A stretch of 32,000 nucleotides of DNA, taken from Trichlorobacter lovleyi SZ. GTDB lineage: Bacteria; Desulfobacterota; Desulfuromonadia; Geobacterales; Pseudopelobacteraceae. Of this stretch, positions 2 to 31,036 are shown piece after piece. The stretch lies in assembly GCF_000020385.1 (NCBI RefSeq), contig NC_010814.1, positions 2,280,001 through 2,312,000 of the forward strand, read 5' to 3'. Below the pieces are notes generated by a model. It did no database searches and was not told where the DNA came from. It saw only the letters and a list, made by a program, of their open reading frames with translations. Made by a program: the position numbers and the translations under genes. How positions within the stretch are numbered: the stretch's first letter is position 1; each line of letters opens with the position of its first letter.

Positions 2-3000
2 TGGCTTCTTAATGTAACCGGCAAAACGGATCGATCTCGATGCAATTTAAAAAAATGGCTTGATGCGCTGCAAAAAATCGATACTGATAAACTCGGAACC
101 ATTCAGCTTATCACCAACAAAGTTCCTGATCGCGATATTGAGGCATGCCTAGGCGGTGGAAGGCATCTGGATTTATCCAAAGCGCCCGAAAGCATCCAAA
201 GTCATGTAGAGGCAACACTTGGTAGCCGGGAAAATGCCGAGTGGTTGTTCTCCCTGTTGCAAGTTGTGCACAGTGACAAGGGTTACTTGAATCTTGAAAA
301 TGTGATTTATGATTCACTGCAGCGTTTTACAGACCGTGACGGCATCGACCGCTTATTGATTCAGGCCAGCAAATGGACATCCTTCAAGGATATGCCCCCC
401 CCTGATGGATGGATCACTCTTGACGTTCTTAACAGCATCATTTCTACCAAACGTCCTCGTCCAATCCCTGAAGACTTTGCAATTCCTGAAGGCTACGAAG
501 TTCCCGACGAAGAGTTTCACTCAGGTTTTGTTGCTGAAATCGAATCTGGAATAAAATCAATTCTTGTTCTGACCGGTCCGCCTGGCCGCGGCAAAAGCAC
601 ATACCTCAGCTATCTCTGCGAAACCTTGGAACAACACGGCATCCCCAATGTTCGTCACCACTACTTTCTTTCTCTGGTAGATAGAACCGATGACAGGCTT
701 TCTCCTTACGTCGTCAAAGATTCGCTCCTGCGCCAAATTGAGCTTTTTCATGCACAAGCTCATGTGGGAATCAAAAGCAATGTAGATTTATTTGAAGCTT
801 TGAGTAGATGCGCGGCTTATTACAAAGCACATAAGAAGCCATTTGTTGTTGTCATAGATGGGTTAGATCATGTCTGGCGTGATAATGCTGGAGATAAACG
901 CCCACTGGACGATCTCTTCAAGCAGCTCATACCAGCTCCCGATAACCTCGTACTCATTATTGGCACCCAACCAGTTACAGATTCTCGGCTTCCCGACAGA
1001 TTGCTGGTCCACGCTCCCCGACACGATTGGAAATTGCTCCCAGTCATGTCCGAAGTCTCGGTAATGCGTTACCTACAGGCTCAACTATCTTGTGGGCGGT
1101 TGTTCATGCAACACGGCACTCATGCGGCTGAAGAACTGGCAAAAAGTGCTCGCCTGATGCGCCAATTAACCGGAGGGCATCCACTGCATGTCATCTACGC
1201 GACCGGGCACCTTGTGAATAGTGGTGAAGGGCTTTCAACATGGAGTGTTGAGCATATTCCGGGAGATTTGAGCAGTGATGCCGAGACGTACTATCGATCC
1301 TTGTGGTTTGGGCTTTCCTATGTCCAAAAAGATATTCTGATACTGTTGGCAGAGTTCAGGTTTTATTGGCCAAGAAGGGCTTTTATAAGCTCCATGCTTC
1401 TGCCGGAAAATTGCAGCGAAGCTAACGTACATACCATTGAACACCTTCTTCATAGCTCCGTCATTGGGCTTCAACCGTTTCATGAAAGTCTTATCGTATT
1501 CATAAAGAACACCGCTGAATACACGGCCCGCGTCCAGATACTGCTTCCAGGCGTATTGCAATGGCTGGATTTTGAAGCTCCAGATCGTTTGAAAAATACA
1601 TGGTTGTGGATTGTTCAAGCGCGAACCGGAATCCCCGACCCTCTGATTGCCGGGCTCACTCGCGATTGGGTTCTCGACCGCTTGGCGGCTGGCTATCCTA
1701 TTGATGTGATTGCAGATATACTCACGGAAGCTGAAGAATCAGCATTCGACTTGCGGCGTTACGCTGATGCATATCGCTTGCGCCATCTGAAAACAAGAAT
1801 CCTGAATGGGCCGGAATTTCAGATCCCTGATGCAACCCGTTTAAAAATCTGCTCGTGGAAATGCGCGGATGATGGCTCTGTGCTTGATGAGGCTTTTGCG
1901 TCGCGTGAGGGCCTTTCGATTGTTGATGAAGCTGCACTTGGTCAAGCTTTGCAGTGGAAACAGCTTGATCAGGAAGCAAACGTTTGTGGAAAGGATGCAC
2001 TCCGCAGACACAGGGGGGACAGCCGCTTTGCTGTTGATGAGCAGCGCGACTCGAACCTAATGGGTGAAATCCTGTATTTGGGGCGAGTGTTTGCGGAACT
2101 GAACACAATTGCTGTTGAGGATGTTAGTCTGAAAGGGGTTTTTAACTCCGGTGATGTGCGCCTGACAGCAGCATTTGTGAGTGGACTTGTTTCGTGCCAG
2201 GATTTGGCGAGAATCATGATGCTCAGGACAAAGTTGCTACGTCCTTCGCGAAAAAAGTTGGTTGAAGATGCGGCCATTCGTGTTGCGGCGCTTCAGGGTG
2301 TGAAAATCCATTACTGGGCAGAATTTAAATCATTCAAACATAGCACCATTGCCGGATGTTGGGCTCAGCTTGTTGACACCCCTCTGGATGCGTACTCCTT
2401 TACGCCTTTTCCAGAAAACTGGAGGGATTACAACAACAACGAAGCGTTAGCTCGGATGGCGCATGAGTGGTTTTTCAAGAGCATCCTCGTAATGCTAACA
2501 GCGGGTGGCAAGTTTTCCTGGCTTTCCCTGCCAGTATCACAGGACACTTATTTTCCGGAAGTTGTTCACTACCTTGATCGAATGACACAGTACGCAGAAA
2601 ACGTTGCGATCATGTGGCGAAGCGAGACCCCCGTAGCGTTCCACCAGTTTTATGATTTTTTTTCAAACCTTACCCCTCCTGGCAGAAACGAGCCCAACAA
2701 GCACTATCCATTTTCAAAGTTCTGCAAGGCATTGATTCCGATTGCTTTGGACTGCCAGCTACTTAGCACTGCAATAGGTGGTACGATCTTGATTGATGCG
2801 GCTTCTTTGGAGTCGGCTGCGAAAAGTCCCTGGCTGAACCTGCATCATTTCAGGGAGTCATATGCACAAAATGGGATAAAGCTGCTTACGGATGATGGTG
2901 CAAAATTCCTTATTGACCACGGAAGGGCGTATCTCTCTCAATGGGATGAAACCTGCGAATACTCACGTGCATTACTTGAAATGTGCGAAATTGCTTTACT

Positions 3001-5593
3001 GCATGAAATGGATAGTGAGGCTCGGCAACTCTGCCGACTCTGCTGGGATTATGTGTTGGGGTATGGCCATCGAAAAGACCTGACAATGCTCACGCTTTTG
3101 GACGCGATTGAATATCTTGCTGATGATGCTCCAGATTTTTGTCGCTCCACACTTGCGGAAATTGCACCACAGATACACCACATTACTGATTACACTGATG
3201 GTAAGGGTACACAACAGGCTTTAAGTTATGCAGACACTCTTCTTGTGAAGCTGGATCTTTCAAGGCTTGCCGAAAAATACGCCGACCACGTCAGTTCGGG
3301 CGATTGGCGCTATGCCGATGAGTGCTTTACTTCATTGTTTACTGGCGATATTACTTCGCCATTTTTTGAAGCTTTGGCACGGACAGGGCTACCAAAGGAA
3401 GCTGTCGAAAACCTGCGCAAACGCGTCCAGAAAGGAGATCAAAGGGCTGCGGAGCTTTTGGATGTTGCCAACTCCCATGTTGGTGCTTCATTTGGAACAA
3501 TCGAAAGACAAGATGTTCAAAACAAATCTGACGAACTCCGAGCGTTCGAGGGCAAGCCAGAAGAATACCCTCCGGTTGCTTTTACAACGCTTCTTTCGGA
3601 GATGAGAGAAAGCGGTACGTACGACATGTATTCTTACCTGCCAAGCTGGTACGAATATTGGGCTGCTCAGGGGCGAGAGTCGGATTTGTTGCGAACGCTT
3701 GAGCCGTTGTTATTGAGTGAAGAGGCTCGCCGTGACGACGTCAAATACATGCTTGATCTGGCTTTTGAGACATGCCTGAAACTCCGCGGGAAAGCAAGTG
3801 CCTTCAGGTATGCAGTTCAGGCACAGAAAGAAATGGGTGGCTGGTCTGATTTTTATGAATCATCCGACAAGTCATTACACAGGCTGTATCAGGTCGCCGA
3901 GCTATATCCTGAACATGCTGATGAATTCATCGCTTTATCCTGCTTTTCAATGTATCGCCGCAAGCATAAATCAAGTGCCAGGGTCATTCCCAATGATAAG
4001 CTGGTCTACTTTCTTGTCAGGCTGGGACGAGTTGAGGAAGCCATGCAGCTTGTTCGCGCAATGGTGCAGTCTGTACTTGAAGATACTCGGCATTTACCGT
4101 TGACACACCCGGTATGGGCTAATGTGTCTGAACGGGAAGACAGTTCTGCTCAGATACGTTTTCTTGTCGTGAGAAGTAGATGGCCGGTGCCTGCGGTGAA
4201 ATGGTGGTCGTTGCAGCAATTGGCAAACCTGCTCAACTCAGAGTTTACGGGAATCGTAGAGACTGAGTTGTATCGTGCCCTGGACGAGGCCAAACTTGAA
4301 ACAGAGGTTGCGGAGCTTCTTTGCTGTTTCTGGCTGGCAAAACAGGACGGTTACAAGCCGAGTGTGGTATTACCGAGGCACATCCATGCTCAATCTCCAT
4401 TATCAACGTTGATACTAGGTGACCTTGTCGAACCGCTCCTTTTTGAGGGTAGCCAGAGAGCCCCTTTACTATTGGCACCTTACGGATATCAGGCGGCCGT
4501 TGATTTTGAAGAAGCACAAGGGACAACGGTTCCCCGAATTTACAGAACTCTTCTTGAACACCTTGAGCATCCTCAATTGCCTCCGTTTGTCAAACAGTAC
4601 GCATTTGAGTGGGATAATACGTCTCACCTTTACCCGGAAGCACCGTTCCAGAGTGATGTCGGCTACTTTCTTGGATATGCTTCTCGTAGCGAGATGACGG
4701 GGCAATTTGTGCCACGCGCCACTCAACGTGGACGTTCCGCCTTTTTGCGCACGTTAGCCGTCGCGCAAGATATCTGCAATGCCCCTCAAAATCTTATCGA
4801 CGATCATACGCTAGTGGCATTGCCTGTTGATCCGACATTCGCCGCGCTTACCCCGTCAAAGCCCGATTGGCTTCCTGCGTGGGAGACTGAACTATCACCC
4901 ATTAGCCGGGAAATTGAGAGATTCATAATTGAGACCATCACACAGATGTCAGTATCTGAACCGGGAACAGCGCTATTGGCATTATCCACACCTCTCAACA
5001 TCAGTGAAAACAGGATCATTAATCTTCAGGTAATCAGATGGGTGCAATGGGAGGATAAACCCCTCGATGCGGAAGAGCTCATTACCCGCCATAGGCATCA
5101 AACGAGTTCTCAAAACCTTGGTTGGTGCCATGTCAAAGGAATGCAGAAAACGACAGTTATTCCGGTAGTGCCTCTGAACAATCTTATTGATCCAGAGACA
5201 TGTGCTGCTCCAACAGCCTTTGAGCCCGGTCGCTGGAGACGAGGCTACCTTCATTCTGCCCTTGATTCACGAGGACTATTTTTCCCAGCGTCAACTGTCG
5301 CGGGAACAGAAATTAGAGTCAGGCCGGTTGCCGGTCAGGTGGAACTTCAAATCGGTACTTCTGGAGTAGGGGGATGGGAATATTGGAATGCCGGATGGCA
5401 TTCATCTCATCCAAAAGGCGCTAAAGCATTCTGCGGTACAGCTCTGACGTTGACTACGGATGCCATGCACTCCCTTTGGGAAAATGCACCAGTAAAACAT
5501 CTGTATGTTTGGAAATGCACCATGCTTCATCGGGAGGCGTCTTATGATAGATTCACTTGTCAACATAACTTTGGAACATTTGCTGCGCCATGA
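2..5593 (+). CDS. Giant STAND (NACHT-like) P-loop NTPase, 5'-partial because it runs off the window edge; at least 1,863 sense codons in the window
   Basis: Frame 2 has no stop from nt 2 to TGA 5591-5593. The track's start at 245 is a TTG and is simply the first ATG/GTG/TTG in frame. There are 81 stop-free codons upstream of it and no Shine-Dalgarno, so the gene most likely starts off-window. Walker A GPPGRGKST is at nt 575-601. The Walker B has the NACHT-type hhhhDGLDx pattern, FVVVIDGLDH, at nt 842-871. About 1,450 aa follow with no motif I recognise. Confidence 0.8.
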   Translation, partial: WLLNVTGKTDRSRCNLKKWLDALQKIDTDKLGTIQLITNKVPDRDIEACLGGGRHLDLSKAPESIQSHVEATLGSRENAEWLFSLLQVVHSDKGYLNLENVIYDSLQRFTDRDGIDRLLIQASKWTSFKDMPPPDGWITLDVLNSIISTKRPRPIPEDFAIPEGYEVPDEEFHSGFVAEIESGIKSILVLTGPPGRGKSTYLSYLCETLEQHGIPNVRHHYFLSLVDRTDDRLSPYVVKDSLLRQIELFHAQAHVGIKSNVDLFEALSRCAAYYKAHKKPFVVVIDGLDHVWRDNAGDKRPLDDLFKQLIPAPDNLVLIIGTQPVTDSRLPDRLLVHAPRHDWKLLPVMSEVSVMRYLQAQLSCGRLFMQHGTHAAEELAKSARLMRQLTGGHPLHVIYATGHLVNSGEGLSTWSVEHIPGDLSSDAETYYRSLWFGLSYVQKDILILLAEFRFYWPRRAFISSMLLPENCSEANVHTIEHLLHSSVIGLQPFHESLIVFIKNTAEYTARVQILLPGVLQWLDFEAPDRLKNTWLWIVQARTGIPDPLIAGLTRDWVLDRLAAGYPIDVIADILTEAEESAFDLRRYADAYRLRHLKTRILNGPEFQIPDATRLKICSWKCADDGSVLDEAFASREGLSIVDEAALGQALQWKQLDQEANVCGKDALRRHRGDSRFAVDEQRDSNLMGEILYLGRVFAELNTIAVEDVSLKGVFNSGDVRLTAAFVSGLVSCQDLARIMMLRTKLLRPSRKKLVEDAAIRVAALQGVKIHYWAEFKSFKHSTIAGCWAQLVDTPLDAYSFTPFPENWRDYNNNEALARMAHEWFFKSILVMLTAGGKFSWLSLPVSQDTYFPEVVHYLDRMTQYAENVAIMWRSETPVAFHQFYDFFSNLTPPGRNEPNKHYPFSKFCKALIPIALDCQLLSTAIGGTILIDAASLESAAKSPWLNLHHFRESYAQNGIKLLTDDGAKFLIDHGRAYLSQWDETCEYSRALLEMCEIALLHEMDSEARQLCRLCWDYVLGYGHRKDLTMLTLLDAIEYLADDAPDFCRSTLAEIAPQIHHITDYTDGKGTQQALSYADTLLVKLDLSRLAEKYADHVSSGDWRYADECFTSLFTGDITSPFFEALARTGLPKEAVENLRKRVQKGDQRAAELLDVANSHVGASFGTIERQDVQNKSDELRAFEGKPEEYPPVAFTTLLSEMRESGTYDMYSYLPSWYEYWAAQGRESDLLRTLEPLLLSEEARRDDVKYMLDLAFETCLKLRGKASAFRYAVQAQKEMGGWSDFYESSDKSLHRLYQVAELYPEHADEFIALSCFSMYRRKHKSSARVIPNDKLVYFLVRLGRVEEAMQLVRAMVQSVLEDTRHLPLTHPVWANVSEREDSSAQIRFLVVRSRWPVPAVKWWSLQQLANLLNSEFTGIVETELYRALDEAKLETEVAELLCCFWLAKQDGYKPSVVLPRHIHAQSPLSTLILGDLVEPLLFEGSQRAPLLLAPYGYQAAVDFEEAQGTTVPRIYRTLLEHLEHPQLPPFVKQYAFEWDNTSHLYPEAPFQSDVGYFLGYASRSEMTGQFVPRATQRGRSAFLRTLAVAQDICNAPQNLIDDHTLVALPVDPTFAALTPSKPDWLPAWETELSPISREIERFIIETITQMSVSEPGTALLALSTPLNISENRIINLQVIRWVQWEDKPLDAEELITRHRHQTSSQNLGWCHVKGMQKTTVIPVVPLNNLIDPETCAAPTAFEPGRWRRGYLHSALDSRGLFFPASTVAGTEIRVRPVAGQVELQIGTSGVGGWEYWNAGWHSSHPKGAKAFCGTALTLTTDAMHSLWENAPVKHLYVWKCTMLHREASYDRFTCQHNFGTFAAP

Positions 5594-5780: not shown

Positions 5781-6050
5781 ATGCCAACAATATCGATGTT
5801 TTATGGGATAATTATCTACCTCTACTTTTACGATGACGAGCGACACCATGTACCACACGTTCATGCCAAGTATCAGGGACAAGACGTTTCTGTATCGATC
5901 ATCGACGGAGAAGTGCTGGCTGGAGAGATTCCTCTGGCAAAGCTACGGCTTGTGCAGGCATGGATTGAAATCCACCGTGAAGCACTGCTGGCCGACTGGG
6001 AACTGGCAGTTAACGGACAGACACCATTCCCCATCGATCCGCTGCGTTAG
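5781..6050 (+). CDS. DUF4160 family small protein
   Basis: 89 aa. The N-terminus MPTISMFYGIIIYLYFYDDERHHVPHVHAKYQG is the characteristic DUF4160 signature (MPTIs.FyGi.i.my..D..h..PH.Ha.Y.g). SD AAGGAG at 5770-5775 lies 5 nt before the ATG. Confidence 0.85.
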   Translation: MPTISMFYGIIIYLYFYDDERHHVPHVHAKYQGQDVSVSIIDGEVLAGEIPLAKLRLVQAWIEIHREALLADWELAVNGQTPFPIDPLR

Positions 6051-6060
6051 GAGCAATGTT

Positions 6061-6330
6061 ATGGAAAAGGTAATCAAGGTAGTTCCCAAAGAAGACTTCC
6101 GGTTGTTGATAACCTTCAATACAGGGGAAACAAAGTTGTTTGATGCCCGCTCATACTTGGAAAAGGGTGTCTTCACCAAGTTGAAGCAACCTGAATTGTT
6201 CCGACAGGCGTATGTAGCGTTTGATACGGTCTGCTGGCCCGGTGAATTGGATATCGCACCAGAGACGCTGTATGACGCCTCTGTTCCGCTATCTGTGTGC
6301 GAAGATCCGCCGGAATACAAGTCCGGTTAA
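6061..6330 (+). CDS. DUF2442 family small protein, the usual partner of DUF4160
   Basis: 89 aa from ATG 6061, with SD AGGAG at 6049-6053. It has the DUF2442-like pattern: V.VVP..DF.LLITF..GE...FD...YL..GVF..L....LF....V.FDTV.WP.ELDIAPETLY. The part of the 165-aa track ORF upstream of 6061 overlaps the DUF4160 gene in another frame and was discarded. Confidence 0.85.
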   Translation: MEKVIKVVPKEDFRLLITFNTGETKLFDARSYLEKGVFTKLKQPELFRQAYVAFDTVCWPGELDIAPETLYDASVPLSVCEDPPEYKSG

Positions 6331-6419: not shown

Positions 6420-6683
6420 ATGCCAACATTGTCCGACCTTATTGAAGCCATGCGCAATAGCCCCACTGGGGTACGCTTTATTGATCTATGCAAGGTCTGT
6501 GACCACTATTTTGGGTCAGCCCGCCAGTCAGGCAGCAGTCACCGGGTATACAAAACACCATGGATCGGAGACCCACGGGTAAACATCCAGAACGATAAGG
6601 GTAAGGCAAAGGCATATCAGGTGAAGCAGGTTCTTAAGGCAATCGAACGAATGGAGATGGAACATGGTTGCGAGAAAAACTGA
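6420..6683 (+). CDS. hicA: HicA-family toxin (mRNA interferase), type II TA
   Basis: 87 aa. The core GSSHRVYKTPWIGDPRVNIQNDKGKAKAYQVKQVLKAIE matches the long HicA variant I know as a partner of RHH-type HicB. It overlaps the downstream antitoxin gene by 20 nt. Confidence 0.8.
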   Translation: MPTLSDLIEAMRNSPTGVRFIDLCKVCDHYFGSARQSGSSHRVYKTPWIGDPRVNIQNDKGKAKAYQVKQVLKAIERMEMEHGCEKN

Positions 6684-7005
6684 TATCTACGACAAATATA
6701 CCTACCGCGTGACTTGGTCGGAAGAGGATTCCGAATATGTAGGGCTTTGTGCCGAGTTTCCCAGCCTGAGCTGGCTGGCAGAGTCGCGCGAGGCAGCGCT
6801 GCGCGGAGTGAGCAAGCTGGTGGCAGAGGTGGTTGAAGATATGCGCCATAATAACGAAGCAACGCCAGAACCGCTTGCCGTCAAGCAGTTTAGCGGTAAA
6901 TTTATGGTCCGTATCCCTCCCGAGGTACACCGGCAACTGGCTATTCAGGCTGCAGAAGCGGGAGTTAGCCTCAACAGGCTGGCAAGCACCAAACTGAGCC
7001 GCTGA
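6664..7005 (+). CDS. hicB: HicB-family antitoxin with a C-terminal RHH-like DNA-binding tail
   Basis: 113 aa. YTYRVTWSEEDSEYVGLCAEFPSLSWLAESREAALRGV is the typical HicB N-domain. The C-terminus FSGKFMVRIPPEVHRQLAIQAAEAGVSLNRLASTKL is typical of an Arc/RHH-type tail. Confidence 0.85.
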   Translation: MVARKTDIYDKYTYRVTWSEEDSEYVGLCAEFPSLSWLAESREAALRGVSKLVAEVVEDMRHNNEATPEPLAVKQFSGKFMVRIPPEVHRQLAIQAAEAGVSLNRLASTKLSR

Positions 7006-7051: not shown

Positions 7052-7657
7052 ATGATCTTGGACAACAAACTCACTATCACCGATCAGATCGAACTGGCCA
7101 AGGCCGAAGAAAAAATCAGCAAACAGAAAGCCAGACAACTGTTTGACTCTGGCGATATTAACAAAGTAGAAATCGGTACCTTTGCCGGCCTTGCGTTTAT
7201 CCATGCCTATCTTTTTGAAGATATGTACCCCTTTGCCGGGAAAATCCGCGATCTGAACATTGCCAAAGGGGATTTCCGTTTTGTGCCGTTGATGTATCTG
7301 GAGCCATCGTTGAAACATATCGATGCCATGCCCCAAGGCACGTTTGATCAGATCATTGAAAAATATATTGAGATGAATGTTGCCCACCCTTTCCGCGAAG
7401 GCAATGGCCGCGCTACCCGTATCTGGCTGGATCTGATGCTTAAAAAGGAAATCCGGCAGGTGGTGGATTGGAACCGGGTCGATAAGGAAGAATACCTTTC
7501 CGCCATGCAGCGTAGTGTGGTGAAAGATCTTGAAATAAAATTCCTGCTGAAACAGGCCCTTACTGACCAGATTGACAACCGTGCCCTGTTTATGAAGGGG
7601 ATTGATGTTAGCTATTACTACGAAGGCTACAGCGAATTTAAGACCGAGGAGCTATAG
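7052..7657 (+). CDS. fic: Class III Fic protein (NmFic-like AMP transferase) with a C-terminal autoinhibitory helix
   Basis: 201 aa. Fic active-site motif HPFREGNGRATR at nt 7385-7420 (consensus HxFx[D/E]GNGRxxR). C-terminal inhibitory motif S-YYY-E-G at nt 7610-7627 ([S/T]xxxE[G/N]). As far as I remember the Neisseria meningitidis NmFic sequence, the resemblance runs end to end (..LF.SGDI...E.G....L..IH.YLF...Y.FAG.IR..NI.KG.FRF...). Confidence 0.92.
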   Translation: MILDNKLTITDQIELAKAEEKISKQKARQLFDSGDINKVEIGTFAGLAFIHAYLFEDMYPFAGKIRDLNIAKGDFRFVPLMYLEPSLKHIDAMPQGTFDQIIEKYIEMNVAHPFREGNGRATRIWLDLMLKKEIRQVVDWNRVDKEEYLSAMQRSVVKDLEIKFLLKQALTDQIDNRALFMKGIDVSYYYEGYSEFKTEEL

Positions 7658-7659
7658 CC

Positions 7660-8202
7660 GTGACCTCTAAATTGCTACACGCCCCCACCACCCCAAAAAT
7701 TGTCATCATCGCTGGTCCCAATGGTGCGGGCAAAACCACCTTTGCCCGTGAATTTCTCCCCCATGAGGCAAACTGTCCAGATTTCATCAATGCCGACCTG
7801 ATTGCTGCCGGGCTGTCACCATTCAAGCCGGAAGCTGCGGCATTCCGTGCCGGGCGCCTCATGTTGCAGGAAATCCATGAAAAGGTACGGCAACAAAAGA
7901 GTTTTGCCTTTGAAACCACCTTAAGCGGTCGCACCTATCTGAAACTTTTGCAGGAATGCCGTGCTAATGGTTATCACATTATGCTGATATTTCTCAGTTT
8001 ACCAACAGCAGACATGGCTGTAACGCGAGTTGCCGCACGGGTAATCCAAGGCGGGCATAATGTGCCGGAGCTGGATATCCGGCGCAGATTCAAAGCTGGT
8101 TTGAACAACTTTCATGCGGTTTACAAGCAGGTTGCGGATATCTGGACGCTTTACGACAATTCTGGTACCATTCCATCCATCTTGGATCAGGGAGAAAATT
8201 AG
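7660..8202 (+). CDS. Zeta-toxin-like P-loop kinase / COG4185-type ATPase
   Basis: 180 aa. GTG start 2 nt after the fic stop, with SD GAGGAG at 7646-7651. Walker A GPNGAGKTT, followed by FINADLIA, then a helical lid region (RVIQGGHNVPE..IRRRF) typical of the zeta/AAA_33-like small kinases. Confidence 0.78.
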   Translation: MTSKLLHAPTTPKIVIIAGPNGAGKTTFAREFLPHEANCPDFINADLIAAGLSPFKPEAAAFRAGRLMLQEIHEKVRQQKSFAFETTLSGRTYLKLLQECRANGYHIMLIFLSLPTADMAVTRVAARVIQGGHNVPELDIRRRFKAGLNNFHAVYKQVADIWTLYDNSGTIPSILDQGEN

Positions 8203-18434: not shown

Positions 18435-19730
18435 TCATTGATTTGACATGAGGTTTTTAGGACGGACCACTAACCGATAAATCTTCCAGCGATAATTCCG
18501 CATATCAGAGGTAAATGTATAGGTCTTGGTGATGCCATCTGTTGCAGCATCACCAAGCACAATTGAACTGCTTGGGCTCTGATAATTTGCATCACGTCGC
18601 CCTACCTGAGCCAGCAGGTACACTTTCACAACTTTCAGGCTATTGCGTAGTTTTTCAGGGTTACCCAAAGCATCTGTCACACGTGTTTGCATTGCAGATG
18701 CAGAGGGAGTTGCTGAAGACTGAACTGTAATGGCACCACCGGTACCAATTGGGGTAGAGTAGGTATCAATCACACCATCCTGCCCTTCATTACCTTGACC
18801 GTCATCAAGATCCCAGCCAAAAATGACCTGCATATCAGCAACACAGTCAAGCAATGGAATGTAGGTTAATTTTGCATAAGCAGCAGAATTGGCATGGACC
18901 ACTGCACCTTTATACAGAATCCCGGTATTTGCATGACAAAAAGAAGGAATTTTACCAGCTGTTGTTGGGCGGGCAACAAAATAATCAGTGCGGTTAAAAG
19001 GCATTCCTAGGGGATCATCGGCTTTAATACCATAAAGGTAATAGACTTCTTCTTTTAGTGTCGGGTTGAATACAGGATCAGCAAAACCGTCCGCATAATA
19101 TCGAGCCCAGTAAATAGAAGGATCAGAGGAGGTTATCATCTGGTTTGAGTAGCCAGAGCTGGTGTAGGTCTTTTTTAGCACAATCACCCGTGAGGCGTCT
19201 GCGCTGGGACCGTCAATCAGGTTTCCGGTTTGCCAGATCCTGGGTTTAAGCTTACCGGTTGTTGCACTACTATAGGGCATGTAGGTCCATCTTTTTGCTG
19301 TTTCATTCATACCCAGTGTAGAGCCTTTTAAGGCAAGGTAGTCGGTGCCAAACACGATATTAGTAGCCTCGTCACCGGTAGCCCCGGCAACCGCCCCCAG
19401 ATTGTCCCCAGCCACCACTGCGCGCGGCACACCGCTTGTTGTTGATCCGGTACAATCATTATAGTTGCTGGCAGGTGCATAACCGGCTTCAATGCAGGAT
19501 ATTGGCGATAAATACGAAAACGGCAAACCATAGCCTGCCTGTTGCAGATCATGGCGAAACATCTCAAGACCGACCACACCCTCAATGTTGCTTTCTTCTG
19601 ACTTGGTGATTTTGGTCATCTGCGTCAAGATAGTTTTAAATGAGTCCGCAGTAATCATGATGACGACAACAAACACCGCCATGACTACAATCATCTCAAC
19701 TAATGTAAAACCCTTACGGGAGTTTAGCAT
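18435..19730 (-). CDS. PilW-like type IV pilus minor pilin
   Basis: Prepilin leader and cleavage/methylation motif MLNSRKG|FTLVEMIVVMAVF. ATG 19730 is preceded by GGAGG (19737-19741). The track's start at 19742 is a TTG lying inside that SD. Confidence 0.75.
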   Translation of the reverse strand: MLNSRKGFTLVEMIVVMAVFVVVIMITADSFKTILTQMTKITKSEESNIEGVVGLEMFRHDLQQAGYGLPFSYLSPISCIEAGYAPASNYNDCTGSTTSGVPRAVVAGDNLGAVAGATGDEATNIVFGTDYLALKGSTLGMNETAKRWTYMPYSSATTGKLKPRIWQTGNLIDGPSADASRVIVLKKTYTSSGYSNQMITSSDPSIYWARYYADGFADPVFNPTLKEEVYYLYGIKADDPLGMPFNRTDYFVARPTTAGKIPSFCHANTGILYKGAVVHANSAAYAKLTYIPLLDCVADMQVIFGWDLDDGQGNEGQDGVIDTYSTPIGTGGAITVQSSATPSASAMQTRVTDALGNPEKLRNSLKVVKVYLLAQVGRRDANYQSPSSSIVLGDAATDGITKTYTFTSDMRNYRWKIYRLVVRPKNLMSNQ

Positions 19731-19748
19731 GACTGCCTCCAATGCACT

Positions 19749-20156
19749 CTACTGGTACTGTGACACAACTGATGATATAGAATGCACATAGCGTTGCCCT
19801 TTGTATTTCCAAATCAGCTGCATATCAATATTGGTGGATTGAGACGTAAGCGCGGTACTGGTCTTGATCACAGAATAATTCCTAAATGCACCATTAACCA
19901 TACGTGGCACAACGGCAGAACGAGTATTAGTTGAAATAGCTTCAAACTTCTTGGCTTTTTCAAGATTAATCTGTTCATCACCAACCATCAACGCCTCTTG
20001 ACGCAGCTGGTTGGTCATATTGTTGGAAATTGCGTAGTTGACAGTCTGCAATAACCCCAACATGCCAACCATCAGAATCACAATGGCAACCAGAAACTCG
20101 ATCAGAGTAAAGCCGGAATTATTGGTATTCACACTTTTTGGGACTAAGAGTTTCAT
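19749..20156 (-). CDS. PilV-like type IV pilus minor pilin
   Basis: 135 aa. ...NNSG|FTLIEFLVAIVILMVGMLGLLQT is a PilV-type N-terminus. It overlaps the upstream fimT-like gene by 38 nt. Confidence 0.8.
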   Translation of the reverse strand: MKLLVPKSVNTNNSGFTLIEFLVAIVILMVGMLGLLQTVNYAISNNMTNQLRQEALMVGDEQINLEKAKKFEAISTNTRSAVVPRMVNGAFRNYSVIKTSTALTSQSTNIDMQLIWKYKGQRYVHSISSVVSQYQ

Positions 20157-20619
20157 TAATTTTCCCCATGTTTACCCTTGCGGTAGACACCCCAAGGCAG
20201 TTATATGCCGGACTTCCTACCCCAACTCCAACGGCAATAGTCAACCAGTCGTTGGTATAGCCACGATCATCAAAGCTCAGTATCGTGTTAGTGAATGCGG
20301 CATATGTTCCATCTGATTTAAGTTGTTGAACCGAATACTTAAGATTTTTACTAAACACCTCTGTACCATTTACATCGAACTCACTACTGTAACGACGAAA
20401 AGCATAAGATGTGGGATTAAGAATCACCCTATGCTGTTGTTTAGTCGCTATTGCTCTGGTGCGTACATCCGTCAGATCCCCAAGCATCTCTTTAACCTGG
20501 CCTTCAATATTATATTTTTTCTGCCAATCATTGAAGTTCAAGGTCGCTACAGCCAGCATGATTGAAATCAAGGCAATAACGACTATCAACTCTGTCAGAG
20601 AAAAACCACGGTTATTCAT
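20119..20619 (-). CDS. FimT/FimU (GspH-family) minor pilin
   Basis: 166 aa. MNNRG|FSLTELIVVIALISIMLAVA prepilin motif followed by a GspH-like region (..DLTDVRTRAI...). Confidence 0.8.
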   Translation of the reverse strand: MNNRGFSLTELIVVIALISIMLAVATLNFNDWQKKYNIEGQVKEMLGDLTDVRTRAIATKQQHRVILNPTSYAFRRYSSEFDVNGTEVFSKNLKYSVQQLKSDGTYAAFTNTILSFDDRGYTNDWLTIAVGVGVGSPAYNCLGVSTARVNMGKINETLSPKKCEYQ

Positions 20620-20673: not shown

Positions 20674-23600
20674 CTACTTTTCCTGGATATGGATAATTTT
20701 CTTAATCGGCTTGGGGTTAGTCAGCAATGACAAGCCTTGCGCCTTGGGCGGGACACCCTGTATGGCACCTGAACGCCTGTTTTCCTTGTCGGTAAATCCT
20801 GCTGACATGGACACCTCTGCAAATGCACCAGTTGATACTTGCACCATGATTTTACCCTTCATGGTATTTGGCGCTGGAGCACCACCAGTTGCATAATTTA
20901 GTGCCCAGATATACGAATTGCCTCCATATCCGCAGACATCGGATGTCGGGCGGAAGGTGGTGTAGAATACCGTGCCACTCGTCGAAGCAACCGGGTCAGT
21001 GATGACCCGCTCGGAAGAGTAACCATCCCCCAAGGAGTCATCATCAAGGTTGATGTACCAACCTTTTTTACTTGCTGCCAGTGTAGCTGACGGCGATGTA
21101 GTCTGATCATCCAGGTCTGTCGCAGCTACTGTTGTTGTACAGCTCGGTAGAATCTTATTGGTCGCAGCATCATAACAAGGATCTTGCACTGCATACAACC
21201 GCCTGGAACTGCCCGAGTCATCTATTTCGGTTGAGTTCTTGTAGAAATAACGACCGGTACCGAAATACAGCCATAACTTTCCGTTAGCCCTGTCCTGAAG
21301 TTTTGCCACAGCTGCAGATACCGGCCCTATACCGCTAATCACGGAACTCCAGGTCCAGGGTTTGCTACCATCATTAGGGTCAACACTCTCATTAGTAGAC
21401 AGACGAATAACCCCACCCTTTGACCAGTGTGTTGCGTCTACCTTTTGCACATACCCGAAATATGCTGCATCATCCTTGTAGAAACCGTCTTTATAGGAGT
21501 ATGAACGATCATTGTCAACCGCAGCATTGGAGGCTGAACCTGCAAAGGCATCAGTCAGCGTCGTGGTAATAGTCTTGACTAATGCACCGGTTGCCAAATC
21601 AACTATAAAGAGCCTTAGGGGCTGATCTGAACGTCCAAGAAACTGGTTATTGGCAGTATCTATAGTACCGGTCGGGCCAGAGGCAAAGACAGCAAACCAG
21701 CGTCCGTTCTTGTTTTTATCACCGACCCTCATGATAACCGGCCCTGCCGTAGCATGCCCCAGATTGTTTGCTGCAGTTGTGTTTCCAGGAAACTCCCACA
21801 GGTATTTGGGTTGCATTGGATCTGTTACATCAAGCGCAAAATACGATGAATAGCCAAATCCTCTGGTATTGGGAGCTGCCGTACTGTCAGTAGGATCAAC
21901 AATGGGAGTTTTAATACAATCCGTACCGCCACCTGCACAGCTTCCTGCACGACTCCTGCTGGCGCCACCTAGCCCGCTTCCACCTATCAGGACCGTCTTC
22001 CAGCTGGTATTAGCGACATCAAGATTTTGGGTACCGGAATTATATTGTGTCTGTTTAGGGCACTCCCAGTAATTGGTTGAGCAGTTTGGATAAGCCACCG
22101 TGTCATAGGTAGCTGGCTTGTTAATTGAGATATCCACGATCAACGGCGTCCCATCCACATAAAACAGGTGGGGATAGGCCGTGTCTGCCAAGTATTTTAG
22201 ATAGGGCAAAACCTGCCGGGGAACGAAGGCCCATTCTTCCTTTCCAATAGCATCTGCAGCATCCGCCCTGATGTTTGCATTGGCACCAATAGTTGTACCA
22301 GAGGCAACTTTTGTATAGTCGTTGAGTTTTGCCTTGTCTGCCTTGCAACTGGTGCTGTTTGAATCCGACTCCAGATTCCGGCAAGGGTCAGTAAGTTCTT
22401 TCAGCACTCCAAGCCTGAAGGCATGCAACATACCGTCATTTGCACCAACATACGCCATACCACGATTACCATAATCATTTGATTTTATGAATTTTTCATA
22501 CGAACTATCGGCATAGCCAACCGGTGGATTCTGACTATACGCATTCAATCCCACGTTACCCTGAACCTTTGGGGTGGAACTGATAATATCACCCAGCCGC
22601 CAGGTGCCTGCAGTGCCAGCTATGGTAGCAGCCCGGGAGCGATAGCCCGATTGATCAGTACCCCTTATGAAGTTAATGATCTTTTCTGCTTCTGTAGCAT
22701 TCGCTGCCTGCAGATAGGTAAGCACGGTAGAATCTGTCTTTAAAGCAGTTGCAAATTCTGCCAGATGGGTTGCTTCACTTGCAGCGTTAAGTACTGAATC
22801 AAGAGTAGAGTCTGTTGACCCGCCAATACGGGTATAGATTTTACGTGCATCAGTCGTTAGATTGCGTGCCCAGAGTATACGACCGGCACGCCAGAGACTC
22901 TTGACGTTGGTGGTGTCATCAGGGTTGAAAGAACCGAGGTCTGCCAGGACAGTACCATCGCCCTTGGTATCCCTTAAAAGTCGAACGAGCGTTTGACTAC
23001 TTGAACTGTCGAAGTAAAACTGGGCAACATAATCTTCCAGCAGATTAAGCTTGTTGTTGGCAACGGTATCCACCCTGATGGAGGTAAAATTAAGGTAGGG
23101 GTCAAGGTAGTACCACATGTTCTGAAGCTCTCCAACCCAGGTTGCTTCAGAGCCCGCATCGAAGGTTTTTTTGGGGTAGAACACTGCCTGTAACAGGCTG
23201 GCTCCGCTACCCTCACTATTATTGAGGATTGAAGCTGCCGTACCGGAAGAAACACGAGACAAAATATCGTTAAACGCTTGACTAAGGGCTGTTACCAGTT
23301 GCTGCCCCTGTTGGGCCTCAAAATACGTATCTGGAATGCCATCACCGTTTTTATCCCATTCAGAACACTTTGAGTTAGGTGATGCCGTACCACAGGTGCT
23401 GTCAGTATATGGTTTTCCGTTATTATCGAGGTCTTCATAGCCACCATACTTGGCAGTCCGCTTCAAAAGTTCACGCCCAACAGATGAATCATCAAAGGCA
23501 AACACCGTATAGATGGTCAGGTTTTGCTTACCGTCAATATTACTTTTACCAACAGAAGCTGTTCTTAAGTCAGTGTTATGGGCATAATAAGCAACCCCTT

Positions 23601-25734
23601 CCAGATAATAGGTACCTTCCGAGCTATTGGCAGCGGTTGCCTTCTGGCTCGTGATCCCTTCGTTGGCTGCAATACTGTCCATCCAGGTCTGCACGTTGAA
23701 ACTATAAGGATCTGTTACCTTTGAGACAGAACCGTCGCCGTTAAAAGCGCTACTTGGCAGATTCTGATCTTTTGTTGATTCACCATCAGTTACAATCATG
23801 ACAAAGTTTCGCTGACATGATTGGGTCACCGGGTCGCTGCTACTGTAATCAACTGAAGAATTATAGGCGCTGGGACGGGCCTCAAAATAGCGTACCGCCT
23901 CATATAATGATTCTGCCAGCGGTGTCCAGGACGATGGATCACTGGTTTCAATCTGATAAGTAAGGTTCTCTTTGGTAGCCCCGACATTTGATGCTATATA
24001 GCCGCCGTCTTTATCACCGCTGTTTGCATCTTCATAATAAGTACCGTCAGTATTAAAAAACATGGCTCCAATCCGGATGCGGTCGGCATACTGAGTGACC
24101 AGACCATCGGTTGGTGGCTGGGTCCCGTACAGCACCTTGATATTATAGGTAGCAGTATAAGAAGAGCAGCTACTGCTGGTACATACATACAATTTGGGAC
24201 CGTCATTTACCTTATAATAGACTCCTGAATACAATTTGTAATAGTCTCGACTGGTATCAGCCAGACCGACCAGGTAATTATTGGTTGAGGTGGTAACGCG
24301 AGGATTCACAGGGTTAGTGTTACTGCCCTGTACTACCCTGCCCCCAACCAAAACCTTGCGCACAACATCCACCCGGCGCATGGTCAGCCAGTTCAGCATA
24401 TTGCCGGACCAGAAATTAGTTTTATCCAGCGTCTTGGTTGTATCGATCTCAAAATAGCCGCTGCTGTTGTATTTATACATCTTGGTATTATCAAAGTAGC
24501 CGTAATAAATCGTGCTGGAATTATAGCTGGCATCAGCCCCTGAGCCGGTATAATTCCCTTTCCCTGCAGTCTTGTAGGCAAACTCCTCCATACTGCCTGA
24601 GTTGTCAACAATCAGAAGCAGGTTGGGCTTTACGCCAGTACCCGCAACAAAAGGTGGAACCTGGGCGTATTCGATAATATTGGGGGGTGTCAGATTCTGC
24701 ACTGTGGTAAATTTCAAAAGATAGGCACTTGACATACTATTTCCAGCCAAGTCTTTAACCCCCGTAGATACCGTGACAGTGTAATCAGTTGCATAGTTCA
24801 GGGAACCGCTGCTAAGTGTCAGGGTAACTGTACGGTCACCATCAAATGAAGGTGCTGCCCAGCTGCCTCCGGACACAGTGAAGTTGGCAGCACTAATGCT
24901 GGATGTCAGCATTGCCTCATTAAATACAATCTGTATGGTGGGGGTAACCGAAACCCCTGTTGCACCTGTTACAGGGACAGTTGACAACACCTGAGGAGGC
25001 GTGCTGTCTGGATTCACAGTGGTAAAACTCCAGCTATAATTACTCAACATGGCATTGCCAGTAACATCCTTAACCGTATTGTGGACAGTGACGGTATAAG
25101 TGGTACCGGGGCTTAGGTTGGTAGATGGCTGAAAAGTGGCCTCTTTGGTGTCATAGGTAATGGCACCGGTTACTGCGGGAGAAAGAGTGATACTGGCAGC
25201 CGGAGATTCGACAGTAGTGGCATCCATATCTTCACTGAACAAGGCAGAAATAGACGAATCAACCGGTATGTTGGTGGCGCCACTGGCAGGATAGATTGGA
25301 CTGACCGTTGGAGGGGTCACATCAGTGCTGGCAACGGTTTTAAAGTAGTAGGTATAATTTGTTCCAAGATCTTCCCAGTTTGAAACTGCAATCTTTTTAC
25401 TGATAGAAATCTTGTAAATGGTATTCGCCTTCAGGTTGCTCTTAGGGGTCAGGGTATAGCTTGAGCTATTTGAAGTAGGCGAGTAGGTAACGGCCACTGA
25501 ATTGCCACTAACTGATTCATTTAACGTGATCCTGTAAGTATTATTATTAAGGATTGTAGACCACTTGACAGTTTTATCAAAAGTAACAACGACACCTGAA
25601 GTTACCGGCACGTTGAGGGTTCCTGGTGAAGATGTGGTACCTGGGGTCACCGAGCTAATTGAGAGTGCCTGAGCAAAAGAGGAAAGACCAAGCAGACAGC
25701 TGAACAGCACAACCAAACGAAATAAGTTTTTCAT
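20674..25734 (-). CDS. Very large PilY1-like pilus tip adhesin: signal peptide, three Ig-like repeats, vWA domain, PilY1 C-terminal domain
   Basis: 1,686 aa. Signal peptide MKNLFRLVVLFSCLLGLSSFAQA. MIDAS motif DNSGS at nt 24592-24606. EF-hand-like loop DKNGDGIPD at nt 23329-23355. PilY1/PilC hallmark GANDGMLHAF at nt 22417-22446. SD GAGGAGG lies 7 nt before the ATG. Confidence 0.85.
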   Translation of the reverse strand: MKNLFRLVVLFSCLLGLSSFAQALSISSVTPGTTSSPGTLNVPVTSGVVVTFDKTVKWSTILNNNTYRITLNESVSGNSVAVTYSPTSNSSSYTLTPKSNLKANTIYKISISKKIAVSNWEDLGTNYTYYFKTVASTDVTPPTVSPIYPASGATNIPVDSSISALFSEDMDATTVESPAASITLSPAVTGAITYDTKEATFQPSTNLSPGTTYTVTVHNTVKDVTGNAMLSNYSWSFTTVNPDSTPPQVLSTVPVTGATGVSVTPTIQIVFNEAMLTSSISAANFTVSGGSWAAPSFDGDRTVTLTLSSGSLNYATDYTVTVSTGVKDLAGNSMSSAYLLKFTTVQNLTPPNIIEYAQVPPFVAGTGVKPNLLLIVDNSGSMEEFAYKTAGKGNYTGSGADASYNSSTIYYGYFDNTKMYKYNSSGYFEIDTTKTLDKTNFWSGNMLNWLTMRRVDVVRKVLVGGRVVQGSNTNPVNPRVTTSTNNYLVGLADTSRDYYKLYSGVYYKVNDGPKLYVCTSSSCSSYTATYNIKVLYGTQPPTDGLVTQYADRIRIGAMFFNTDGTYYEDANSGDKDGGYIASNVGATKENLTYQIETSDPSSWTPLAESLYEAVRYFEARPSAYNSSVDYSSSDPVTQSCQRNFVMIVTDGESTKDQNLPSSAFNGDGSVSKVTDPYSFNVQTWMDSIAANEGITSQKATAANSSEGTYYLEGVAYYAHNTDLRTASVGKSNIDGKQNLTIYTVFAFDDSSVGRELLKRTAKYGGYEDLDNNGKPYTDSTCGTASPNSKCSEWDKNGDGIPDTYFEAQQGQQLVTALSQAFNDILSRVSSGTAASILNNSEGSGASLLQAVFYPKKTFDAGSEATWVGELQNMWYYLDPYLNFTSIRVDTVANNKLNLLEDYVAQFYFDSSSSQTLVRLLRDTKGDGTVLADLGSFNPDDTTNVKSLWRAGRILWARNLTTDARKIYTRIGGSTDSTLDSVLNAASEATHLAEFATALKTDSTVLTYLQAANATEAEKIINFIRGTDQSGYRSRAATIAGTAGTWRLGDIISSTPKVQGNVGLNAYSQNPPVGYADSSYEKFIKSNDYGNRGMAYVGANDGMLHAFRLGVLKELTDPCRNLESDSNSTSCKADKAKLNDYTKVASGTTIGANANIRADAADAIGKEEWAFVPRQVLPYLKYLADTAYPHLFYVDGTPLIVDISINKPATYDTVAYPNCSTNYWECPKQTQYNSGTQNLDVANTSWKTVLIGGSGLGGASRSRAGSCAGGGTDCIKTPIVDPTDSTAAPNTRGFGYSSYFALDVTDPMQPKYLWEFPGNTTAANNLGHATAGPVIMRVGDKNKNGRWFAVFASGPTGTIDTANNQFLGRSDQPLRLFIVDLATGALVKTITTTLTDAFAGSASNAAVDNDRSYSYKDGFYKDDAAYFGYVQKVDATHWSKGGVIRLSTNESVDPNDGSKPWTWSSVISGIGPVSAAVAKLQDRANGKLWLYFGTGRYFYKNSTEIDDSGSSRRLYAVQDPCYDAATNKILPSCTTTVAATDLDDQTTSPSATLAASKKGWYINLDDDSLGDGYSSERVITDPVASTSGTVFYTTFRPTSDVCGYGGNSYIWALNYATGGAPAPNTMKGKIMVQVSTGAFAEVSMSAGFTDKENRRSGAIQGVPPKAQGLSLLTNPKPIKKIIHIQEK
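24697..25662 (-). repeat. Three tandem Ig-like (SbsA_Ig/Big_5-type) domain repeats encoded at the 5' end of the pilY1-like gene; the repeat is at protein level and the DNA has diverged
   Basis: The repeat starts align by eye: ISSVTPGTTSSPGTLNVPVTSGVVVTFDKTV / PPTVSPIYPASGATNIPVDSSISALFSEDMD / PPQVLSTVPVTGATGVSVTPTIQIVFNEAML. Each ends in a ..Y.V.V....D..GN.......F.T-type strand. Confidence 0.6.
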
Positions 25735-29990: not shown

Positions 29991-30767
29991 TTATTTGCCC
30001 AGATGCAGATACCAGTTGATCAGCTGGGGGCCATAAAAGATGTAAAGCACAGCCCCCAGAGCCAGATAAGGACCGAACGGGATGGCCAGATGGCGTCCCT
30101 TGCGTTGCAGCGCCATGATCGAGAGGCCGGCCACGGTCCCCACCAGTGATGAGGTAAAGATGATAAACGGGACAGCCTTCAGTCCCAGAAAAGCCCCCAG
30201 CATGGCAAGCAACTTGGCATCTCCCCCGCCCATTCCCTCACGCCCGGTCAGCCAGAGATAACTGTAAAAAACCAGAGCCAGACTGCCCCAGCCGACAACA
30301 ATGCCCAGCAGGGAGGAAAGCCAACCCGGCTCAGGCAGGAAAAAAGAGGCCAGGAAACCAAGGCCGACACCCGGCAGCGAGATCTCATCTGGGATGATCT
30401 GATGATCAAAATCAATGAAGGTGACCACAATCAAAGCGGCAACAAGTAGGGAATAGATAAAGAAGGGGACGGTCAGACCGAAACGCAAAAACAGCAGCAG
30501 CAGCAGGCAGGCGGTAAGCAGCTCAACCAGGGGATAGCGGATCGAAAAGGCTGCCCCGCACCCCCGGCAGCGCCCCCGCAGCAGCAGCCAGCTGATGATC
30601 GGGACATTGTCAAACCAGCGTACGGCTGCACCGCAGGACATGCAGCGGGAACCGGGGCTGACAATTGACTGGTCAAGCGGCAGCCGGTAAATACAGACAT
30701 TCAGGAATGAGCCAATCACCGCTCCGAACAGAAACACCACCACCGCCAGGTACATAAGCGGAGGCAT
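29991..30767 (-). CDS. pilD: Prepilin peptidase / N-methyltransferase (A24 family)
   Basis: 258 aa. GSFLNVCIYRLP, the Cys-rich CMSCG...CRGCG motif, and the polytopic membrane segment with GGGDAKLLA containing the catalytic Asp. Confidence 0.93.
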   Translation of the reverse strand: MPPLMYLAVVVFLFGAVIGSFLNVCIYRLPLDQSIVSPGSRCMSCGAAVRWFDNVPIISWLLLRGRCRGCGAAFSIRYPLVELLTACLLLLLFLRFGLTVPFFIYSLLVAALIVVTFIDFDHQIIPDEISLPGVGLGFLASFFLPEPGWLSSLLGIVVGWGSLALVFYSYLWLTGREGMGGGDAKLLAMLGAFLGLKAVPFIIFTSSLVGTVAGLSIMALQRKGRHLAIPFGPYLALGAVLYIFYGPQLINWYLHLGK

Positions 30768-30769
30768 GG

Positions 30770-31036
30770 CTATTCTTCACCAAATCCATCAATGATCAAG
30801 GCGCCGATAGTCTGCATCGCCTCTGCCTCATCCGGCCCTTCTACGGTCAGACGGATCTTTGTGCCCTTTGAAGCAGCAAGCATCATGATCCCCATGATGC
30901 TCTTACCATTCACCTCAACCGATTCACGGGCTAATTTAACTTCTGACTGAAATTTGCTGGCAGTCTTGACAAACAGTGCCGATGCACGGGCATGCAGCCC
31001 CAGTTTATTAACGATCTCAAATTCTTGCTGTTGCAT
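30770..31036 (-). CDS. ptsH: Phosphocarrier protein HPr
   Basis: 88 aa. His15 in NKLGLHARA and Ser46 in NGKSIMG are both conserved. Confidence 0.93.
   Translation of the reverse strand: MQQQEFEIVNKLGLHARASALFVKTASKFQSEVKLARESVEVNGKSIMGIMMLAASKGTKIRLTVEGPDEAEAMQTIGALIIDGFGEE

Follow-up and report, generated by a model that had tools for sequence, protein, structure and literature searches.

The window analysed here, 32,000 nucleotides of contig NC_010814.1 of Trichlorobacter lovleyi SZ (positions 2,280,001 to 2,312,000), opens inside a giant gene on the forward strand (nt 2..5593) that probably encodes a single-chain Avs-type intracellular receptor, a bacterial protein resembling the NOD-like receptors (NLRs) and causing abortive infection. 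Full-length relatives show a four-part architecture in which a Cap4/DUF4297-like nuclease is followed by a NACHT NTPase, a helical sensor of ~850 aa and a C-terminal module of ~480 aa. The tripartite layout of Avs proteins is present, with an N-terminal effector, a central NTPase of the signal transduction ATPases with numerous domains (STAND) class and a long C-terminal sensor. The protein is homologous to bNACHT27 and is predicted to be an NLR-related bacterial NACHT protein, and the family is a catalogued, functionally unsolved bacterial NACHT family rather than a new class. What is added here is the identity of the effector, the Avs3-like sensor, a separable module with an orphan fold and repeated fusion and fission, and intragenic recombination.

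Nuclease and NACHT NTPase of the giant reading frame

Frame 2 of the forward strand contains no stop codon between nt 2 and the one that ends it at 5591-5593, and holds 1,863 sense codons, in agreement with the earlier note on this DNA, which had described an uninterrupted frame of at least 1,863 codons still open at the window edge. There is no in-window stop upstream and the 5' end is cut by the window edge. Since stops are expected every few dozen codons at ~48% GC, an open reading frame (ORF) of this length is not a product of chance. Relatives were gathered from 5.8 billion clustered proteins and more than 1,000 were returned, most of them 1,920-1,970 aa long, with a second class of ~1,470 aa. 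The closest relative, P0001, is 90% identical and has 1,944 aa; the first residue of the window protein aligns with its W84, which leaves ~83 residues off the window, and the full protein would have about 1,945 residues when extrapolated from full-length relatives. The family is thus far among the largest single-chain bacterial NLR-like receptors. The two tail strings quoted in the earlier note, GVGGWEYWNAGWHSSHPKG and YVWKCTMLHREASYDRFTCQH, were both located at the C-terminus.

Window aa 1-107 (nt 2..322, P0001 aa 84-190) form the second, non-catalytic half of a Cap4/DUF4297-like PD-(D/E)xK nuclease domain, so a resemblance that had been described as faint is supported. The ~83 residues that lie off the window read FDYQ...FE...DDIV..ER...WQVK in relatives, and an alignment of 25 diverse full-length members showed Y18, Q19, E43, D53, D54, Q68 and K70 (P0001 numbering) to be invariant. 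The invariant E, DD and QxK are predicted to constitute the PD-(D/E)xK signature. The suggestion that the effector lies upstream of the window was therefore sound, since the missing residues hold the whole PD-(D/E)xK catalytic core in full-length relatives. The Pfam model Cap4_nuclease (PF14130) matches 7 of the 25 members at E <= 0.01 (best 5.8e-9) and scores 20 bits against P0089 (cut-off 26.2). PADLOC models of the Cap4 type from cyclic-oligonucleotide-based antiphage signalling systems (CBASS) also match the N-terminus (SAVED-PDDEXK, 2e-9; 'Effector endonuclease', 6e-7), as does the PADLOC model of Lamassu LmuA (2e-6), and the corresponding region was labelled 'Tox-REase-8' by Kibby et al. 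(bioRxiv 10.1101/2022.07.19.500537). The effector family is probably the one found in CBASS Cap4 and LmuA (DUF4297, PF14130), with a PD-(D/E)xK core activated by oligomerisation. In contrast to these proteins, the nuclease is here fused to a NACHT receptor and not paired with a SAVED sensor or an SMC-like partner, and the Pfam scores of the present family are mostly under the cut-off.

The NACHT NTPase module, with its nucleotide-binding, helical and winged-helix parts, occupies window aa 179-529 (nt 536..1588) and was delimited from Pfam matches and family-invariant motifs. Pfam NACHT (PF05729) reaches 34.8 bits (cut-off 26.7) over aa 179-334, where AAA_16 and NPHP3_N are also above their cut-offs; apart from these three, Pfam gave no above-cut-off match in the window protein. 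The NACHT model also matches 25 of 25 relatives, which upholds the assignment to the NACHT-type STAND NTPases. The Walker A motif GPPGRGKST was found exactly where it had been reported, at aa 192-200 (nt 575..601), with K198, and its G..GKST is invariant in the family. The Walker B sequence FVVVIDGLDH ends at nt 871, DGLDH itself lying at nt 857-871. Its part VVIDGLDH (nt 848-871), which is invariant in the family, and the extension that follows read VVIDGLDHVWRDN and cover nt 848..886 (D286, D289 and H290). The earlier note had remarked that this motif reads DGLDH in place of the consensus DGLDE. The deviation is real, and all 25 of the full-length members aligned carry a His after DGLD, indicating that DGLDH is a family trait and neither a lesion nor a one-off substitution. 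In P0001 numbering, the invariant positions comprise G275..G280, K281, S282 and T283 of Walker A and D368-G-L-D371-H372 of Walker B, and further invariant motifs are RHHY, GTQ, a GxP-like PL and FHES with H576. The last of these falls in PFHESL of the window protein (nt 1475..1492), whose invariant His stands at the position expected for the STAND winged-helix His; from this position we infer that the FHES His (window aa 494) is the one that contacts the nucleotide.

Helical sensor and separable C-terminal module

The ~1,450 residues that follow the NTPase had been judged unassignable. This no longer holds for ~850 of them, which form a helical sensor similar to that of SeAvs3, and it still holds for the last ~480, for which no fold relative was found. 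The sensor (window aa 530-1382, nt 1589..4147) was predicted by AlphaFold2 to be an all-alpha solenoid with a predicted local distance difference test score (pLDDT) of 89.7 and a predicted template modelling score (pTM) of 0.89. A Foldseek search of the PDB with this model returned as top matches two SeAvs3 chains bound to the terminase of phage PhiV-1 (8DGC); chain 8dgc_A matched with E 3.4e-5, probability 1.00 and a query template modelling score (TMq) of 0.48. All remaining PDB matches of the sensor were generic solenoids with TM scores of 0.10-0.17, and 8DGC is therefore its only specific neighbour. Sequence searches of the PDB with P0001 and with a 61-row family profile yielded P-loop noise only, and 8DGC was missing at E <= 1.

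The C-terminal module occupies window aa 1383-1863 (nt 4148..5590) and consists of a helical part and, after it, a beta-rich alpha/beta part. Its boundary is marked by the relatives themselves, as the ~1,470-aa class terminates exactly at window aa 1383 (P0072 is collinear with aa 1-1383, 43% identity over 1,397 columns). In this short class, the NACHT gene is followed by a gene of ~481 aa without a Pfam domain, whose start codon overlaps the stop codon of the NACHT gene (TTGA in Burkholderia, ATGA in Chitinibacter), and this second gene is predicted to be translationally coupled to the NACHT gene in the sister lineage. The product of the second gene (L002) aligned end to end with window aa 1383-1863 in BLASTP (34% identity, E 2e-90), indicating that the window gene unites in one frame what is otherwise a two-gene system. 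A profile of the module was searched against 1.84 billion representative proteins and retrieved 535 clusters, 156 of them at E <= 1e-30. The best 150 of the 535 were either free proteins of ~480 aa or the ends of ~1,900-aa proteins, with a few of odd length that look like fragments; the module is found only with the present NACHT family. The last quarter of the protein is thus a separable, family-specific module, which offers an experimental handle on the way in which bacterial NLRs assemble and diversify their sensors, and the natural split and fused versions permit reconstitution in trans and module swaps.

The module was modelled by AlphaFold2 from a 61-row alignment with high confidence (pLDDT 94.6, pTM 0.92), its first half being helical and its second half alpha/beta and beta-rich. 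Foldseek found a best match of E 5.7e-3 with a TM score of about 0.1 in the PDB, with SeAvs3 unmatched, and a best match of E 4e-2 in BFVD, with no credible neighbour. Neither the module nor the second gene of the split form gave a Pfam or PADLOC match. Among the 61 module sequences R, G, P, W and W are invariant, and no catalytic-looking constellation was seen in these residues.

To follow the fused and split states, a rough neighbour-joining tree was built from 240 module sequences, of which 132 are fused and 97 free. The two states are interleaved in this tree and parsimony requires about 20 changes between them, a count taken from a crude tree that assembly frameshifts could inflate. The interleaving fits an easy interconversion of fused and split forms at the overlapping stop and start codons. 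The gene is fused at 17 of 23 species-representative genome loci and split at 2, with shortened or partial frames at the other 4. These last (L016, L026, L030 and L036) have frames of 314-1,205 aa, not all of them at contig ends, which points to pseudogenes or faulty assemblies in some lineages.

Sequence conservation is not uniform along the protein. In the 25 aligned members, the mean pairwise identity is highest in the nuclease and NTPase (0.50-0.51); the helical sensor stands at 0.35-0.40, and within the module the helical half stands at 0.39 and the alpha/beta half at 0.28. Variability therefore increases toward the C-terminus, and no part of the family varies more than the alpha/beta half of the module. 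As a tentative proposal, the module may be an undescribed fold that acts as a detachable co-sensor or gatekeeper; the family would then be a two-component NLR in which frame changes of one nucleotide have repeatedly turned two polypeptides into a single chain or back, and the hypervariable alpha/beta half would pick the phage protein. It is also possible, if doubtful, that the machine is the same and the last 480 residues are instead an autoinhibitory lid, a host-factor adaptor (compare EF-Tu with Avs7 and DnaJ with bNACHT25) or a second effector. Such a role would suit a module that can occur as a separate polypeptide and has its own compact, confidently predicted fold, the more so as the helical sensor is by itself similar to a complete sensor of the Avs3 type and host factors can take part in Avs and bNACHT sensing (Lee et al., PMC13581612; Conte et al.). 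Against it, the module lacks conserved catalytic-looking residues and matches neither an enzyme nor a known domain in Pfam, PADLOC or the Foldseek searches of PDB and BFVD, and its highly variable alpha/beta half fits an arms-race surface better than an interface with a conserved host protein. The odds that the module belongs to the ligand-binding surface, rather than being a regulatory or host-factor-binding subunit, are roughly even.

Receptor model and relation to known systems

The nearest described protein is bNACHT27 of Enterobacter asburiae (WP_033145356.1, 1,473 aa), which was listed with '2 genes in operon' and cloned as a 6,310-nt insert (Kibby et al., bioRxiv 10.1101/2022.07.19.500537). 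Table S1 of that study describes it as Tox-REase-8 + NACHT of clade 2 and assigns nothing past residue 490. The window protein is 50% identical to the printed 399-aa portion of bNACHT27 over 319 aligned residues of the nuclease and NTPase (E 3e-102). Both proteins carry the RHHYFL and DGLDHVWR motifs and belong to a common family, bNACHT27 being of the ~1,470-aa class; its 1,473 aa and the accompanying second gene represent the split form, whereas the window gene is the fused form. A second family member, ECC9552481.1 of Salmonella enterica subsp. salamae, is seed #25 among the 656 seed STANDs in a census of defence STANDs (Lee et al., bioRxiv 10.64898/2026.01.04.697583; Nature 2026, PMC13581612), and its NTPase is 49% identical to that of P0001. 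The novelty anticipated by the earlier note is therefore small at the level of the class, since the literature already holds the family as an untested or negative candidate, both as bNACHT27 and as seed #25 of Lee et al.

Two identifications were considered for this seed list and rejected. Seed #25 is unlikely to be SeAvs7, because the Walker residues are numbered K292/D358 in SeAvs7 and, by our own count, K282/D370 in the seed. The neighbouring seed #24 was rejected as SeAvs3; this seed has no PDB match.

Among the characterised systems, SeAvs3 (AVAST type 3, a sensor of the terminase large subunit) is alike in plan and size, with a Cap4 nuclease, a STAND NTPase and a very long helical sensor in ~2,000 aa. 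It differs in that there is no detectable sequence relationship, the present NTPase is of the NACHT clade and the terminal 480-aa module is unmatched by SeAvs3. SeAvs7 and the Cap4-STAND receptors Avs7-24, as described by Lee et al. (PMC13581612), share the principle of a Cap4 effector that is assembled by STAND oligomerisation once the helical sensor binds a phage core protein. The best-scoring defence hidden Markov model is Avs1b (PADLOC PDLC02159, NCBIfam NF041810), which is alike in total length (~1,925-1,930 aa) and has an NTPase and winged helix at the matching position (profile 207-626; E 1e-10 for P0001). The match is confined to the NTPase region, leaving the sensor and the terminal module unmatched, and reaches just 13.5 bits in NCBIfam, where the cut-off is 1,500; Avs1b has a trypsin-like protease at its N-terminus and partners with the metallo-beta-lactamase nuclease Avs1a.

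SeAvs3 and EcAvs4, reportedly described by Gao et al. in 2022, served as the model for how the receptor may be activated. By analogy with these two proteins and SeAvs7, the receptor would at rest be a closed monomer with its nuclease sequestered. A protein made by the infecting phage would be enveloped by the helical sensor, probably together with the terminal module, whereupon the NACHT module would open and oligomerise in an ATP-dependent manner. The Cap4 domains would thereby be brought together into an active DNase, and DNA would be degraded, phage replication halted and the cell lost. As a weak guess from the Avs3-like fold of the sensor, the trigger might be the large terminase subunit.

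Several observations weigh against this receptor model. A phage phenotype has been demonstrated for no member of the family, and the phage-defence column is empty for bNACHT27, whose cloned insert included the second gene (Kibby et al., bioRxiv 10.1101/2022.07.19.500537). The catalytic part of the nuclease lies upstream of the window, so its residues were read in relatives and not in this genome, and Pfam Cap4_nuclease scores 16.5 bits over P0001 aa 12-190, below the cut-off of 26.2. The models of Avs1-5 in PADLOC 2.0 and NCBIfam gave no full-length match, only Avs1b matching over the NTPase (1.9e-7 to 9e-11). The likeness to SeAvs3 is one of structure only (TMq 0.48, 13% identity, no sequence-profile match). 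The R, G, P, W and W that are invariant in the terminal module point to neither catalysis nor a known binding site, and the role given to this module is pure inference. Finally, no relative was found in 50,697 phage records, so that the family has no link to prophages.

It is very unlikely that the T. lovleyi copy is a decaying or inactive relic whose nuclease has been lost or disrupted past the window edge. The ~83 catalytic residues do lie outside the window and shortened or partial ORFs occur at 4 of the 23 genome loci, as such a relic might lead one to expect. Its 1,863 codons are intact, however, every NTPase motif is conserved, and the closest allele is full length and followed by the same genes.

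Genomic context, mobility and recombination

Homologues of the window gene occupy a range of sites. One lies between traN and ssb-bet-exo in an integrative and conjugative element (ICE) of the SXT/R391 type, a position known as hotspot 4 of these elements (Wozniak et al.). Another is the cargo of a Tn7-like element (TnsB/TniQ/TnsD) with BrxR, DUF5677, DUF2971 and H-NS close by, and a third is an integrase/AlpA island adjoining AbiEi/AbiEii and a type IV restriction enzyme (3.5e-189). In Klebsiella, a homologue resides in an island with a SMODS + S_4TM CBASS, a dynamin-like pair and another Cap4-AAA protein. The last is a candidate Cap4-ATPase of 932 aa located 2 kb from the homologue (L006:5222-8020, minus strand), with a faint Cap4_nuclease/LmuA-like N-terminus, AAA_22 and a SEC-C motif. 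Homologues were also found on 21 plasmids, of which 9 are conjugative and which include the 171-kb plasmids of Cupriavidus metallidurans CH34. In E. coli the gene is rare, being present in 4 of 5,426 complete genomes in an island flanked by IS630, IS3 and an integrase, and the copies are annotated merely 'AAA family ATPase' or 'ATP-binding protein'. Clusters of more than 90% identity cover Vibrio, Proteus, Providencia, Shewanella, Citrobacter, Acinetobacter and others, and the genomes with the closest relatives of the window allele are metagenome-assembled genomes of Geobacteraceae (55-64%). Carriers of clinical relevance are thus included, namely the SXT/R391-type ICE hotspot in Vibrio, Proteus and Providencia and large plasmids of Klebsiella, Pseudomonas and Cupriavidus. 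As to the question raised in the earlier note of whether homologues lie near defence genes, six independent contexts and the plasmids were judged qualitatively and found to be variable, with no fixed housekeeping setting. The family therefore moves horizontally and resides among defence genes.

In the window, the giant gene is followed on the forward strand by a pair of small genes of DUF4160 (5781-6050) and DUF2442 (6061-6330), which is also present downstream of the 90% relative and is not kept in more distant loci. An 87-aa gene (6420-6683) without a Pfam match at E<=0.01 reads as HicA-like only by its position upstream of hicB, and it is overlapped by a gene for a HicB-family antitoxin (6664-7005). 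Next on the same strand are a Fic/Doc protein of 201 aa (7052-7657), which is a full-length match to the PADLOC defence candidate PDC-S04 (E 1.8e-103), and directly after it a zeta-toxin/AAA_33-like P-loop protein of 180 aa (7660-8202); these two may constitute a candidate defence or toxin module of their own. The accessory island stops before htpG (8493), past which lie the core genes htpG, rpsA, ispH, cmk, aroA, tyrA, pheA, minor pilins, pilS/pilR, pilD, HPr and rapZ. The defence-island setting proposed from the stacked toxin-antitoxin (TA) genes is thus borne out by the TA-like pairs and the PDC-S04 Fic protein in the window as well as by the defence and mobile contexts of the homologues.

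A main role in conflicts between mobile elements (exclusion of ICEs or plasmids, addiction, or defence against plasmids or satellites) and not against phages is unlikely. The carriage of homologues in the SXT/R391-type hotspot, on conjugative plasmids and as Tn7-like cargo would agree with it, as would the TA-like modules that adjoin the gene in the window and the lack of a reported phage phenotype for bNACHT27. Cargo hotspots of ICEs, plasmids and transposons, however, often carry anti-phage systems; in addition, homologues have CBASS, AbiE, type IV restriction and BrxR as neighbours, and the nearest analogue in structure is a sensor of a phage protein.

It is extremely improbable that the protein is a STAND signalling ATPase without an immune role, for instance a regulator of transcription or of housekeeping functions. 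The public annotation is just 'ATP-binding protein' or 'AAA family ATPase', RefSeq still using only the former, and regulators occur among the STAND clades (Lee et al., PMC13581612). The present protein differs from such regulators in its nuclease-type N-terminus and in having no DNA-binding helix-turn-helix output domain. Its occurrence is moreover patchy, mobile and rare (4/5,426 E. coli genomes), and its neighbourhood is variable, a conserved housekeeping context having been seen at none of the loci examined; a regulatory phenotype was not seen either. An Avs-type receptor therefore remains the reading that we prefer.

Comparison of the window gene with its closest allele (L001:232-6066) revealed two regions of very different divergence. 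The 3' ~2.6 kb and the downstream DUF4160 and DUF2442 genes are near-identical in the two loci, and the 5' ~3 kb have diverged, differing in 11-24% of their residues and in as many as 57% of their codons. The transition lies at approximately nt 2850..3010 on the forward strand, near aa 1000; upstream of it the amino acid identity is 76-89% and the codon identity 43-78%, and downstream the values are 98-100% and 96-100%. Such a sharp breakpoint indicates recombination between diverged alleles within the gene, and this recombination between the window and L001 lineages appears to be recent.

In the 90% relative, only 23 nt separate the end of the upstream gene (L001:1-231) from the ATG of the NACHT gene, and this upstream gene looks like the C-terminal end of the methionine synthase MetH. 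The gap of 23 nt leaves hardly any room for a dedicated promoter, and transcription of the NACHT gene in L001 may start inside the upstream gene or read through from it. The layout of the island would then be roughly metH, the NACHT and TA-like genes, and htpG, and the window gene is a well-preserved allele in this small putative metH-htpG island. The island is not cleanly delimited by GC content, which is 0.46-0.50 in the NACHT gene and 0.55 in the core block at 9-17 kb, the pilin region being again at 0.45-0.49. A scan for promoters and terminators around the 3' end of the gene gave counts no different from the shuffle expectation, and no tRNA genes were found within the window.

Two further features of the window lie outside the island. 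A second giant ORF of 1,686 aa (20674-25734, minus strand) contains three Big_5 Ig-like domains and a weak CglB-like stretch and has no PADLOC match. On that strand it immediately precedes three genes for minor pilins of the N-methyl (prepilin) type (18435-20619), and it looks like a pilus-associated adhesin. Nucleotides 30001-31000 show an unusually high AT skew on the forward strand (+0.33), in a segment where the genes for a prepilin peptidase (A24) and HPr lie on the minus strand, and this skew may come from the T-rich codons of the membrane peptidase.

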